Below are positions 1 to 8,950 of a stretch of 64,000 bases of DNA, piece by piece. Position numbers and translations under genes: made by a program. The notes below the pieces were generated by a model, which made no database searches, had not been told where the DNA came from, and worked only from the letters and a program-made list of their open reading frames with translations. Each line of letters starts with the position of its first letter. Position 1 is the stretch's first letter. The DNA comes from Dehalococcoidia bacterium. Its GTDB lineage: Bacteria; Chloroflexota; Dehalococcoidia; DSTF01; JALHUB01. Location: assembly GCA_050010555.1 (NCBI GenBank), contig JBEKKV010000002.1:47815-111814 (forward strand), written 5' to 3'.

Positions 1-821
1 CTCGATGTGTTGAGCGGCTGCGGGAGAACCTGCCAGAACTCGGGGGAACGCTCGCGGTCGATTCGACAGACATCAAGGCATGGGCTAACTGCGGGCATCA
101 CGACACCGATCCCGACGCTGGCACCGGCGCTAAGAAGAAGTCCGGCGGGACGCACTACTGGTATGGGTACAAGGTCCACACCGTCGTAGACGCTGACGCG
201 GAATTGCCCCTGTGGTTTTCGGTCACTGCGGCCAACACTTACGATGGCTCAATGCTTCCGCCCGTGCTAGAAGGCGCTCAGGCGCAATACGACTGGCTTA
301 GGCCGAAATACGTCACCGCAGACAAAGGCTACAACGCTCGGGCTTGCTTCGACTTTGTAGGCGAAGAGATGAAGGCGATTCCCGTTATCGACGTACAAAA
401 GCGCCAGTCGAAGGAAAGAGAAGGGCGGCCATGCGAAGCGAAGCCGATAGTGACACCGACCGGCCTTCATTGGCAATGCAACCGCCTTCCGTACGATCCG
501 GTTTGCCCTCGCTTCGGCAAATGCCCGCTCCTACCGATGTTCGCGGACGGTGAGTTGAACAAAAGCATCGGTGGCCGTTACTTCGAGCGCCATAGCCCGT
601 TTCCCTACGGCTCGTGCCAATGGAAGGCCATCTACAACAAGCGCGTGTCAGTGGAAAGAGTATTCAGCCGATTGAAGGGCTATCGGAAGCTAGACGCAAT
701 CAGGACGCGAGGGCTGCCGAAGGTATGGCTGCATGTAGCCTTAAGCTTACTCGCTATGAACGTTGCAGCCCTAGTCAACAGTGCTAATAGTGCAACGACG
801 CTGAGGAAATGCGTCGCGTAA
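1..821 (+). mobile_element. IS4/IS5-superfamily DDE transposase, 5'-truncated by the window edge. The reading frame is continuous from nt 3 through the listed 204..821 ORF.
   Basis: Manual translation from nt 3 gives ...DSTDIKAWANCGHHDTDPDAGTGAKKKSGGTHYWYGYKVHTVVDADAELPLWF... joined to the 204..821 ORF. The GYKxH...D and YNKRVSVERVFSRLK motifs are typical of DDE_Tnp_1 transposases. The listed 7..189 ORF is a different frame and is not the gene. Confidence 0.8.
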
Positions 822-849: not shown

Positions 850-876
850 CCGCCTGTTGCTCGCAACAACAGGCGG
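850..876 (+). terminator. Stem-loop, 10-bp perfect stem (ccgcctgttg / caacaggcgg) with a 7-nt loop, just after the transposase stop. No U-tract follows. It could be an IS-terminal structure or a weak terminator.
   Basis: Inverted repeat read directly from the sequence. TATAAT at 832..837 lies just upstream. Confidence 0.3.
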
Positions 877-981: not shown

Positions 982-1410
982 ATGTTGACCCGAACTGACT
1001 GGCTTCTACGCTTCATTGCTGGCGCAGAAGGCTACGATGGTTGGATAGACCGTATTCGGATCATGAAAGGCATGTTCCTCTTTCAGGCTGAAGCGCCAGC
1101 GCCCCCAGAAGTGAATTACAGATTTCAACCATACGACTACGGCCCCTTCACCGCTGAGATATACCGAGACCTTGAGGCCCTGATCGAGAACGGCCATGTC
1201 CTTGATCTCCCTGGGGGTAAATCGTATCGGGCTACTCAGCAGGGCCGAGACCATCTGTCAAACCTGCAGTTTCCCCCTAAGCCATTGGAGGGCTTGATTA
1301 ACATGCGGGTTGAGGTCTCGGATTTGAACTTCCGCGACTTGCTCAAGCGAGTCTATTCTGCGCACCCCGAATCGGCTCGTAGGAGTGTTGCCAAGGATAT
1401 TCTGCATTGA
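982..1410 (+). CDS. Panacea-domain (DUF4065, PanA/SocA-like antitoxin-type) protein
   Basis: 142 aa. RIRIMKGMFLFQAE...NYRFQPYDYGPFTAEIYRDLEAL matches the Panacea pattern (KLxKLLYxA ... F.AW.YGPV.pElY). GC is lower than flanking genes. The stop overlaps the next start (TTGA). Confidence 0.5.
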   Translation: MLTRTDWLLRFIAGAEGYDGWIDRIRIMKGMFLFQAEAPAPPEVNYRFQPYDYGPFTAEIYRDLEALIENGHVLDLPGGKSYRATQQGRDHLSNLQFPPKPLEGLINMRVEVSDLNFRDLLKRVYSAHPESARRSVAKDILH

Positions 1411-2138
1411 CGATCGTCGTAGGGTTCTGTTGCGATGCAGGGCTTGTAATCGCTTCTGATAGCCAGATTTCCGCTGGTGCCACGCGGCGCTGGGGACAGA
1501 AGGTTTGGGCAGTACCCGCTCTAGGATTCACGTTCGGGCTTGCCGGGGCCGAGTCCACAATGCAGTTGCTTCAGGACTATCTTCTAAACGCCACCTTCGA
1601 TTCGACAGATGTAAACCTAGTTCGTCTCAAGATTACCGAGGCTGTGTCCGCCGTACTCAAACCTGAATATGATCGTGTGGCCTCACTCATCGCAGGAACA
1701 ACTGCCAGCAACTTGCCGCTAGGTGAAGCCCTCGTAGGGATTTACGTCGGGGGTCGGCCCCATCTCTTTGAACTCGCCGCTAACGGACTCGTGACAGATC
1801 ATCACGTAAGGAACTTCGCGGCTATTGGAGCGGGCAAGCCATTCGCCGAGCATGCCGCCACAATATTCCGAGACCTTCCAGCGGGCATGACTCTGCACCA
1901 GGCGAAGATGTTAGCCTTCCGAATGGTTCAGGATGCAATCGAGGCGGCAGGTCCAAACATACCTGTAGGCGGTCCTGTGCAGATGGCCTCAGTTTCACCT
2001 GGCCCTCCACCAACCCCTGTTCTACTCCAACCGGATGACCCTGCCCTGAAGGATGCTGTAGACGGTTGGATGGCGGCCGAGGCCATGAGGTTTCAGGAAC
2101 ACCTCCCGCCAGGGGAAGAACCCCCTCCGCCCTCCTAG
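1407..2138 (+). CDS. HslV/20S-proteasome-beta-like Ntn-hydrolase (N-terminal Thr peptidase fold) with a Pro-rich C-terminal extension
   Basis: MTIVVGFCCDAGLVIASDSQISAGATRRWGQKVW aligns with the HslV N-terminus ([33 protein letters not shown]), including Thr2 and Lys. AAIGAGKPFAEHAA matches the GSG..A motif. It has a TTG start in a 4-nt overlap with the upstream gene, and lower GC. Confidence 0.6.
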   Translation: MTIVVGFCCDAGLVIASDSQISAGATRRWGQKVWAVPALGFTFGLAGAESTMQLLQDYLLNATFDSTDVNLVRLKITEAVSAVLKPEYDRVASLIAGTTASNLPLGEALVGIYVGGRPHLFELAANGLVTDHHVRNFAAIGAGKPFAEHAATIFRDLPAGMTLHQAKMLAFRMVQDAIEAAGPNIPVGGPVQMASVSPGPPPTPVLLQPDDPALKDAVDGWMAAEAMRFQEHLPPGEEPPPPS

Positions 2139-2163
2139 CCGCCCAGGGTTTCGCAACAGGCTA

Positions 2164-2193
2164 TTGACTTCCTTACACGCTAGCGTGTAAGAT
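2164..2193 (+). promoter_or_regulatory. Sigma-70-like promoter (TTGACT, 18-nt spacer, TAAGAT) overlapped by a perfect 18-bp palindrome TTACACGCTAGCGTGTAA (2173..2190). Probable operator for the downstream HTH protein.
   Basis: The palindrome is its own reverse complement. It lies immediately upstream of the XRE-HTH gene. Confidence 0.5.
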
Positions 2194-7891: not shown

Positions 7892-8950
7892 TTGCTCGTG
7901 GACGACCTCCTTCACTCTCGCGTCCGGCCGTTCTCCGTCGGCTGTCCAATGACTGCGGCGCAGTTTCTCGACGCGATGGGCGGCACGGCGTTTCAGGCGC
8001 GGAACCTGGCCGAAGCCGCACGCATCTGGTCGCGCATGCTCGAGGACGACGTCGTGATCATGTTCGGGCTGGCCGGCGCGATGGTGCCGGGAGGAATGCG
8101 GAAGGTTATCGCCTACCTGATTGAGAACCGCATGATCGACGTTCTCGTCAGCACCGGCGCGAACCTGTTTCACGACGTGTACGAGACGCTGGGCAAGCCG
8201 CACTACCAGGGCAGCGCCGAATCCGATGATCAGGAGTTGGGCCGGCGGCGAATAAACCGTTTCTATGACGTGCTGGCCCCCGAGGCCGATTTCTCCGCCG
8301 CCGAAGAGTTCATCACCCAGTTCTCGTTCACGCTCGACGGCTCGCGACCCTACAGCACGCGTGAGTACTTCCAGCGACTCGGCGAGGCTCTCCTGCCGGT
8401 GGCGCAAGAGGAGGGTATTCTTACCGCCGCCGCCCGGCGCGGCCTGCCGGTCTATTCGCCTGCCCTCGGCGATAGCGTTCACGGCCTGGCGATCGCCGTC
8501 GGACGTGTCCGCAGCGCCCGCTCGGGCCAGAAGTCTCTGCCCGTCCTCTTCGACATCATCGGCGACGTGCTGGAGACCGCGCATATCGCAGCGACGGCGC
8601 CGGCAACCGGCGTCATCTACGTCGGCGGTGGGACGCCGAAGAACTTCATCCAGCAGGCGGAGGTCGGCGGCTACATCTTCCGGCGGGAGCTTCCCGGCCA
8701 CAAGTACGCGATCCAGGTTACTATGGACCAGCCGCAATGGGGCGGCCTCTCCGGCTGCACGTTCGAAGAGGCGCAGTCGTGGCGGAAGATCGCGGCGGAC
8801 GCGACGATGGCGACCGTGAACGTGGAGGCGACCGTCGCGCTGCCGCTCATCGTGAGCGCGCTGGCCGAGAGCAGTTCGGGAATCATCGAAAAGCGCCGTC
8901 CGCCGGCGATCAGCTTCGACGGCATGCTCGGCGCCTTGCGCGAAGGCTGA
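7892..8950 (+). CDS. Deoxyhypusine synthase-like protein (DHS/homospermidine-synthase family)
   Basis: It has the DHS-family Rossmann-like layout. Motifs include VLVSTGANLFHD and VGGGTPKNF. The true start may be the internal Met at about 7949. Confidence 0.6.
   Translation: MLVDDLLHSRVRPFSVGCPMTAAQFLDAMGGTAFQARNLAEAARIWSRMLEDDVVIMFGLAGAMVPGGMRKVIAYLIENRMIDVLVSTGANLFHDVYETLGKPHYQGSAESDDQELGRRRINRFYDVLAPEADFSAAEEFITQFSFTLDGSRPYSTREYFQRLGEALLPVAQEEGILTAAARRGLPVYSPALGDSVHGLAIAVGRVRSARSGQKSLPVLFDIIGDVLETAHIAATAPATGVIYVGGGTPKNFIQQAEVGGYIFRRELPGHKYAIQVTMDQPQWGGLSGCTFEEAQSWRKIAADATMATVNVEATVALPLIVSALAESSSGIIEKRRPPAISFDGMLGALREG

Follow-up and report, generated by a model that had tools for sequence, protein, structure and literature searches.

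A divergent Panacea-like protein and a proteasome-family peptidase encoded by a near-obligate gene pair within a transposon of a Dehalococcoidia bacterium

Introduction

What kind of unit, if any, is formed by a small antitoxin-like gene that overlaps a gene for a proteasome-like peptidase? The question arises from a stretch of 64,000 nucleotides (nt) of a Dehalococcoidia bacterium (contig JBEKKV010000002.1, positions 47,815 to 111,814), referred to below as the window, in which two such genes lie directly behind a DDE transposase gene. The upstream gene, gene 1, encodes a protein assigned here to the Panacea superfamily, and the downstream gene, gene 2, encodes a predicted N-terminal nucleophile (Ntn) peptidase of the proteasome family. 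The two genes occur together at the great majority of the loci analyzed, and in the window they are carried by a transposon. As the most likely function we infer a type II toxin-antitoxin or abortive-defence module in which the effector would have the proteasome fold, a role that we consider about as likely as not. The identity and mobility of the pair, on the other hand, are well supported. The evidence, and the explanations that compete with this role, are discussed in the following sections.

The gene pair in the window

Coordinates refer to the window; a window position equals the position in L101, the 125 kb Joint Genome Institute (JGI) metagenome source contig, minus 8441. Loci are designated by L and a number. 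The two genes are:

982..1410, plus strand: gene 1, ATG start, 142 amino acids (aa); divergent Panacea-superfamily protein (SocA / DarG C-terminal domain), with a winged-helix and a helical domain
1407..2138, plus strand: gene 2, TTG start, 243 aa; predicted threonine peptidase of the proteasome fold, with an N-terminal nucleophile, no propeptide and a C-terminal helix particular to the family

The reading frames have 4 nt in common at the junction cATTGAcg (context ...CTGCATTGACGATC...), in which the TTG start of gene 2 is combined with the TGA stop of gene 1, and an AAGGA sequence is located 9-13 nt 5' of the gene 2 start. An earlier note on this DNA had described overlapping genes with a TTGA junction behind a DDE transposase; the list of open reading frames (ORFs) and the junction sequence confirm this arrangement, with the transposase ORF ending at 821. 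The motifs quoted in that note (RIRIMKGMFLF, FQPYDYGPFTAEIYRDL, MTIVVGF, GLVIASDSQISAG and GAGKPFAEHA) are all present in the two proteins. The reported difference in base composition is also observed, with a GC content of 0.53-0.58 over ~600-2100 against 0.66-0.73 beyond ~2250; the DNA of the pair itself has ~54% GC, compared with ~69% in the adjoining DNA. The charge and isoelectric point of the two proteins were uninformative.

We also note that the source annotation of this region (L101 9423-10579, corresponding to window 982-2138) does not call gene 1 and places an antisense ORF of 82 aa at L101 9447-9695 instead. The same annotation starts gene 2 at an internal ATG, which yields a protein of 192 aa without the catalytic threonine.

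Gene 1: a divergent Panacea relative

The Pfam model of the Panacea domain (PF13274, SocA_Panacea, DUF4065; gathering score 25.7 bits) gives no match to gene 1 even at E<=1, and 13 of 36 close relatives show sub-threshold matches, the best with an E value of 0.0088. The relationship to Panacea is nevertheless indicated by three other comparisons. A tblastn search of plasmids with gene 1 identified haloarchaeal proteins annotated as DUF4065 or SocA antitoxin (E 2e-8, 81-87% of the length), two of which pass PF13274 with 29.8 and 26.7 bits; these haloarchaeal relatives have other partners and no proteasome homologs. Comparison of the gene 1 family by hhalign with the haloarchaeal proteins and one strong Panacea protein gave a probability of 99.6% and an E value of 1.8e-24 over the whole length. 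The fold of gene 1 matches the DarG C-terminal / Panacea domain in a fold comparison, and DUF4065 proteins have been described as homologous to the DarG C-terminal domain (2026 paper, PMC13621843). Residues G54-P55-F56 are invariant in the gene 1 family (alignments of 36 and 37 members), and this GPF corresponds to the GPV signature of Panacea, a motif reported to be critical for neutralisation (PMC8832971).

Judged from these comparisons, gene 1 is a member of the Panacea superfamily that lies outside the current Pfam model. The objection that gene 1 is not a Panacea protein since Pfam is silent is ruled out by the hhalign, tblastn and fold results. The Panacea assignment proposed in the earlier note therefore stands as homology; the PF13274 hit, whose absence the note had named among the refutations of its proposal, is indeed missing.

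Weak matches to the RTP and PadR winged-helix Pfam models are present in many members of the gene 1 family, and some sources name gene 1 relatives “PadR family”. These features would fit an alternative in which gene 1 is solely a winged-helix (PadR-like) transcription factor for the peptidase gene and makes no contact with the peptidase itself. We regard this as improbable, given the hhalign match to Panacea proteins over the whole length and the 4-nt overlap of the two genes, which is kept across dozens of lineages and suggests co-synthesis of complex partners. The alternative moreover overlaps the toxin-antitoxin reading, as type II antitoxins often bind DNA as well.

Further searches with gene 1 connect the domain to restriction-modification proteins. 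In PADLOC-DB v2, the match of gene 1 to the candidate model PDC-M19A (2.6e-11) is confined to the N-terminal 126 positions, and gene 1 also matches the C-terminal end of the type I specificity-subunit model (Specificity_I positions 432-546). A gene-1-type domain is fused to the C-terminus of HsdS on the Sulfolobus islandicus plasmid NC_012624.1 (14639-14947); the presence of this domain on HsdS fits the frequent placement of the pair beside type I restriction-modification operons. No match to gene 1 was found among 50,697 phage records.

Gene 2: a proteasome-family peptidase

Gene 2 passes the Pfam model PF00227 (Proteasome; MEROPS T1) with 27.7 bits against a gathering score of 22.4 (E 2.5e-6, residues 3-179), and shows sub-threshold matches to archaeal beta subunits, to HslV and to a PHROG annotated as HslV-like. 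With a profile of the gene 2 family, the 20S beta (5e-7) and alpha (9e-7) subunits score about equally. The fold is of the Ntn alpha-beta-beta-alpha type, and the closest structures in the fold comparison are Anbu and archaeal beta. A profile search of 1.84 billion representatives returned 238 clusters at E<=1e-10. The best 150 of these 238 clusters are mostly full-length matches that begin at residue 1, and the family is therefore considered to lack a propeptide.

The active-site residues T2, D18, K32 and G47 of the window copy represent the Thr1/Asp17/Lys33/Gly47 set of the proteasome. Conservation of individual positions among 145 representatives is as follows:

Thr2: 139 of 145 (and Ser in 2)
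Asp18: 140 of 145 (and Glu in 2)
Lys32: 144 of 145
Gly47, oxyanion hole: 143 of 145
Gly141: 145 of 145
Ser142, the Ser129 position: 115 of 145; Ala142 in the window copy
Trp221, C-terminal helix: 132 of 145
Glu225, C-terminal helix: 133 of 145

The catalytic set is therefore kept in nearly all gene 2 relatives, and gene 2 is predicted to be a proteasome-family Ntn peptidase with an intact Thr/Asp/Lys/Gly set. This agrees with the family assignment in the earlier note, several details of which need correction. The resemblance to HslV in particular does not hold: alpha and beta subunits score equally, the fold is less similar to HslV than to Anbu and the 20S subunits, no HslU gene or recurrent AAA+ partner accompanies gene 2, and HslV identity is ruled out on these grounds. 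The NCBIfam HslV model PRK05456 gives 14.2 bits (E 0.025) against a cut-off of 137. The proposed GSG hallmark is actually G-A-G in the window copy. As for the Pro-rich C-terminal tail, only its PPG motif is conserved; the rest of the tail is not, and the C-terminal helix with Trp221 and Glu225 is conserved instead. A tblastn search of 72,556 plasmids with gene 2 gave no match.

Conservation of the pair

A profile search returned 901 gene 1 relatives, and a metagenome scan confirmed 515 loci; 80 were fetched. For the pairing count, all ORFs were scored with hidden Markov models (HMMs) of both families; the count comprises 81 non-redundant loci at which the sequence continues for 300 nt or more behind the gene 1 relative. 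An intact gene 2 relative is situated directly downstream at 72 of the 81 loci (57 full-length, 12 truncated where the contig ends and 3 rescued on re-inspection). A broken gene 2 remnant follows at 5 loci, a gene 2 relative lies on the opposite strand at 1, and none is present at 3. The pairing is far above chance and near-obligate, and the co-occurrence in other genomes on which the earlier note had made its proposal depend is thus found. Individual inspection of 12 loci revealed a protein of 230-280 aa, often flagged Proteasome, directly after the gene 1 relative. The gap between the genes is mostly -4 nt; where it differs, it reaches at most about +20 nt. Nearly all gene 2 partners begin with M-T-[LVI].

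The GC content of the loci ranges from 35 to 71%, and the pair has therefore spread across very different genomes. Named sources include metagenome-assembled genomes (MAGs) of Dehalococcoidia and Tepidiformaceae and one MAG of the Patescibacteria group. A clade-specific pattern scan of genome contigs recovered two loci only and was uninformative on the breadth of the family. No recurrent third gene or AAA+ partner was found among 150 neighbours of 30 loci, and no AAA+ family recurs in the neighbourhoods of about 40 loci.

Pairwise identities of gene 1 and gene 2 are correlated (Pearson r = 0.80, 57 pairs), with a mean identity of 36% for gene 1 and 27% for gene 2. Co-variation and translational coupling of this kind fit a stoichiometric complex, and they bear on the main rival of the toxin-antitoxin or abortive-defence reading. 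According to this rival, the two proteins would form a standing ATP-independent protease complex without toxicity, in which gene 1 recruits or gates substrates as in SocA-SocB-ClpXP, and the role would be housekeeping or regulatory and only sometimes mobile. The higher conservation of gene 1 agrees with it, and the Trp221/Glu225 C-terminal helix and the Anbu-like fold hint at an oligomer with an added interface. A precedent is provided by SocA, a Panacea-domain protein that functions as a proteolytic adaptor (PMC8832971). The genomic settings, described below, bear on this rival in both directions.

Some loci depart from the common arrangement. Decay of the presumed toxin gene was initially taken as evidence at about 8 loci with an intact gene 1 and a broken gene 2, and was dropped, since L071, L080 and L086 prove intact; L016, L025, L070 and perhaps L039 remain as candidates. 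At L055 (270-1615) the proteasome-like gene is on the opposite strand and convergent with gene 1, the 3' ends overlapping by 4 nt, which is probably a local inversion. A C-terminal remnant of gene 2 with an in-frame stop is present just upstream of rpoB at L010 (4001-4555; Dehalococcoidia MAG Baikal-deep-G124), where gene 1 is absent. Two gene-1-like genes stand in tandem on the IMG/VR contig L100 (5001-6220, 30% GC), which lacks a proteasome-like gene.

The carrier transposon

The pair in the window travels as a passenger of an IS1182/IS5-like transposon, 3.87 kb in length, within a high-GC chromosome. The features that define this element are:

1..821, plus strand: 3' part of the transposase gene (IS1182/IS5-like DDE); the full gene encodes 391 aa and begins 354 nt before the window
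850..876: hairpin in the spacer that separates the transposase stop from gene 1; its 10-bp stem is perfect, and counting G-T gives 12 pairs
2148..2163 (L101 10589-10604), minus strand: right terminal inverted repeat, TAGCCTGTTGCGAAAC on the minus strand
L101 6737-6752, 1.7 kb before the window: left terminal inverted repeat, TAGCCCGTTGCGAAAC
2164..2167, with the other copy at L101 6733-6736: target-site duplication TTGA, from direct sequence reading

The window ORF at 204-821 matches PF01609 (DDE_Tnp_1) with 1.2e-15. For the full transposase ORF (L101 8087-9262), matches were obtained to DDE_Tnp_1 (3.2e-26), DUF772 and the NCBIfam IS1182 model (6.4e-45); the curated thresholds of the NCBIfam models for IS1182 and IS5 are not reached. 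The left and right 16-bp repeats agree at 15 of 16 positions, no further copies were found in 20.6 kb, and the low-GC island extends over ~L101 6550-10600. Besides the transposase and the pair, the element contains a minus-strand ORF of 100 aa, which has no family match, and a DUF5343 protein of 241 aa, both at L101 6758-7881. The unoccupied insertion site is expected to read ...CCGATTGTTGTTGA joined directly to CTTCCTTACACGCTAGCG....

A second, diverged element was found on an independent contig, L018, with ~66% nucleotide identity (transposase 59.5%, gene 1 66% identical). Its left repeat is identical, its right repeat has 2 mismatches, and CAAG is present on both sides. The left-hand passenger differs, being an unannotated protein of 278 aa, and the position of the pair is unchanged. 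Transposition is the straightforward reading, since each of the two elements has its own perfect 4-bp duplication, and the horizontal acquisition that the earlier note had suggested from base composition is thereby given a vehicle. A sequence similar to the left repeat, AAGCCCGTTGCGAAAC, directly follows the right-hand CAAG of L018 (5304-5323), which suggests that this element was inserted beside a solo repeat or a second element.

In the window, the insertion adjoins a host gene of the Xre helix-turn-helix type (2200-2451), just upstream of it. A perfect 20-bp palindrome (CTTACACGCT/AGCGTGTAAG) at 2172-2191 lies inside the sole sigma-70-like promoter match (2164-2193) and is probably the operator of the Xre regulator; the TTGA duplication overlaps the -35 hexamer of this match. 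The Xre gene and a DUF2851 gene were considered as a third component and ruled out, as they have host-like GC content and lie beyond the right end of the transposon.

Settings at other loci

The settings of the pair vary widely. At L007-L009 it is accompanied by IS1595. L104 has an integrase followed by MTaX1-HNH, a methyltransferase, Mrr and DUF87, and L103 has siphovirus tail genes followed by a ResIII helicase and a methyltransferase. On the IMG/VR contig L099, a pectate-lyase-like tail protein and DUF5675 are on one side of the pair and RadC and RecT on the other. A type ISP enzyme lies 4.5 kb upstream at L003, a type I/IIG restriction-modification gene is present at L012, and type I restriction-modification genes occur with BrxC/BrxD at L013. 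L014 contains hsdR-S-M, insertion sequence (IS) genes and, on the same island 2.8 kb beyond the pair, a genuine SocA_Panacea gene (7931-8428, 59.9 bits) with its own downstream partner. In total, 6 of about 11 independent annotated contexts (L003, L012, L013, L014, L103 and L104) have type I, IIG, III or ISP enzymes, BrxC/BrxD, MTaX1-HNH or Mrr within 6 kb, which is a raw count over these contexts.

Among the 150 neighbours of 30 further loci, the families seen most often are phage integrases (3), DDE transposases (3+1), N6 methylases and type IIG enzymes; 2-5 of the neighbours are methyltransferases and 3 are type IIG enzymes. The remaining neighbours are unrelated housekeeping genes, and most of these loci have no transposase or phage gene nearby. 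In the Tepidiformaceae chromosomes L001-L003 (2.4-3.1 Mb) the site of the pair is syntenic, with a short-chain dehydrogenase cluster on one side and lspA-rluD-gltX on the other.

The conserved chromosomal site in three Tepidiformaceae genomes is in line with a standing protease complex and its adaptor or gate. Recurrence as transposon cargo, as prophage accessory and as neighbour of restriction-modification or BREX genes, together with the patchy distribution over very different genomes, would be unusual for a housekeeping protease. Taken with the points given above, we consider the protease-adaptor explanation rather unlikely.

The same settings bear on another alternative, in which the peptidase serves the transposon or phage, by processing the transposase or a host factor or by counter-defence, and is neither a toxin nor part of host immunity. 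The location of the pair directly after the transposase and within the inverted repeats in two diverged copies is suggestive in this respect, as are its presence in one IMG/VR viral contig and at one prophage-like locus. The transposase, however, is common to only 2 of about 90 loci, and the scarcity of transposase or phage genes at most loci argues in the same direction. Pairs are also very rare in viral contigs, with 1 found in a scan of 2.9 million. This alternative is accordingly rated as very improbable.

Comparison with known systems

The pairing of gene 1 with gene 2 is new to the literature searched. The terms “proteasome”, “HslV” and “Ntn” do not occur in the Panacea paper and its supplements, one of them covered in part, nor in the NetFlax paper, two 2025 defence-modularity preprints and a 2026 BREX survey. 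Within the Panacea, NetFlax, proteasome-homolog and defence-discovery literature, with the same partial supplement, no description of the pair was found, in agreement with the earlier note, and wider full-text searches gave nothing relevant to the pairing.

The closest counterpart is PanAT (Kurata et al. 2022, PMC8832971). As in PanAT, the upstream small gene is homologous to Panacea and retains GP[V/F], the antitoxin gene comes first with an overlap or a very short gap, the genes are carried by mobile elements and occur close to defence genes, and Panacea is paired with a very different fold, as it is with the diverse PanT toxins. In contrast to PanAT, gene 1 does not reach the threshold of the Pfam model with which the PanAT census was defined, and its family is for that reason outside the census. 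The partner has a proteasome fold, which is not among the listed PanT types (one supplement covered in part). The gene 1 branch keeps to one partner family, whereas PanA swaps partners. The toxin role of gene 2, moreover, is putative. In the case of DarTG (DarG C-terminal domain, PDB 7YK3), the differences are larger: gene 1 has no macrodomain, its identity to the DarG C-terminal domain is only about 14-17%, and its partner is not a DarT ADP-ribosyltransferase. SocAB likewise ties a Panacea-type protein to a self-compartmentalising protease. SocA hands SocB to the unlinked housekeeping protease ClpXP, so that the neighbouring gene encodes the substrate; in the present pair the neighbouring gene encodes the protease itself.

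On the peptidase side, gene 2 resembles Anbu, BPH and the 22 families of Fuchs, Alva and Lupas (2021, PMC8665760) in its proteasome fold, its Thr1/Asp17/Lys33/Gly47 site and the lack of a propeptide. Like other orphan homologs, it has no AAA+ partner and is similar to both alpha and beta subunits, with a C-terminal helix as in Anbu and WPH. For the 22 new families, no genomic context or co-occurrence suggestive of function was reported (PMC8665760), which is in contrast to the near-obligate upstream partner of the gene 2 family. Judged by the described traits (equal alpha/beta similarity, C-terminal helix), WPH or group II would be the likeliest candidates if the gene 2 family coincides with one of these 22 families. 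The Met-Thr start, the lack of a propeptide and the bacterial setting are shared with HslUV; HslU or another AAA+ gene does not adjoin gene 2. The carrier element, in turn, is similar to passenger-carrying IS elements (transporter IS) in having one DDE transposase, terminal inverted repeats, a 4-bp duplication and internal genes unrelated to transposition. It differs in its passengers, a set not described before that consists of DUF5343, the 100-aa ORF and the Panacea-like and proteasome-like pair.

Proposed role of the pair

The toxin-antitoxin or abortive-defence reading is based on three considerations. The first is that characterised relatives of gene 1 bind and inhibit the product of the neighbouring gene: Panacea proteins neutralise adjacent toxins via direct binding (PMC8832971), and the DarG C-terminal domain binds and inhibits DarT (PMC13621843). 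The second is that gene order and overlap follow the type II pattern, with two small co-directional genes in one operon and the antitoxin-like gene first. The third is the kind of setting, which the pair has in common with addiction and defence genes. In the proposed mechanism, the two products would be made in fixed proportion, and the Panacea-like protein would bind the peptidase and hold it in an inactive state, with ring assembly, the active-site chamber or the entry of substrates being obstructed. Loss, titration or alteration of the partner, as might occur upon loss of the mobile element or phage infection, would free the peptidase to degrade cellular or invader proteins; the element would thereby be stabilised or the infection aborted.

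Several observations weigh against this role. Of the two proteins, the presumed toxin is the less conserved one, which is the reverse of the usual pattern, and the Tepidiformaceae synteny looks more like a resident housekeeping operon. The restriction-modification association is drawn from a raw count over about 11 contexts. Peptidases of the proteasome family as a rule depend on ring assembly, and often on an activator, so that the free gene 2 product need not be toxic. Within the active site, the Ser129 position is Ala in the window copy, and the equivalents of Asp166 and Ser169 appear to be Ala and Asn (in an HMM alignment to the 20S beta subunit only). PADLOC models gave no meaningful match to gene 2 and 69 diverse relatives. 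Finally, the gene 2 truncations in L007 and L005 are probably long-read assembly errors and not real pseudogenes: near-identical contigs differ by 12 gaps in 2.8 kb (L007 vs L008) and by 43 in 4.5 kb (L005 vs L004).

A more specific version of the toxin-antitoxin or defence role, in which the proteasome-fold peptidase would be the executioner of a mobile immune or addiction module and the Panacea-like partner would both silence it and sense the trigger, is possible but doubtful in our view.

Significance

To our knowledge, bacterial proteasome homologs other than HslV and the actinobacterial 20S proteasome have no known function. Within the literature searched, we rate the pair as a putative PanAT-type module with a new effector fold; at the same time, a defined partner is here assigned for the first time to an orphan proteasome homolog. 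The near-obligate partner and the mobile, defence-rich setting make the function of the gene 2 family directly testable. For the Panacea superfamily, the pair adds a branch found below the Pfam threshold used in the PanAT census, one that is faithful to a single partner and not promiscuous. If the proposed role is correct, an Ntn threonine peptidase that acts by processive or compartmentalised proteolysis would represent a new effector chemistry. In the more specific version, with the peptidase as executioner, the proteasome fold would be seen for the first time in a toxin or defence effector, and the pair would provide the first functional context for the large set of orphan bacterial proteasome homologs.

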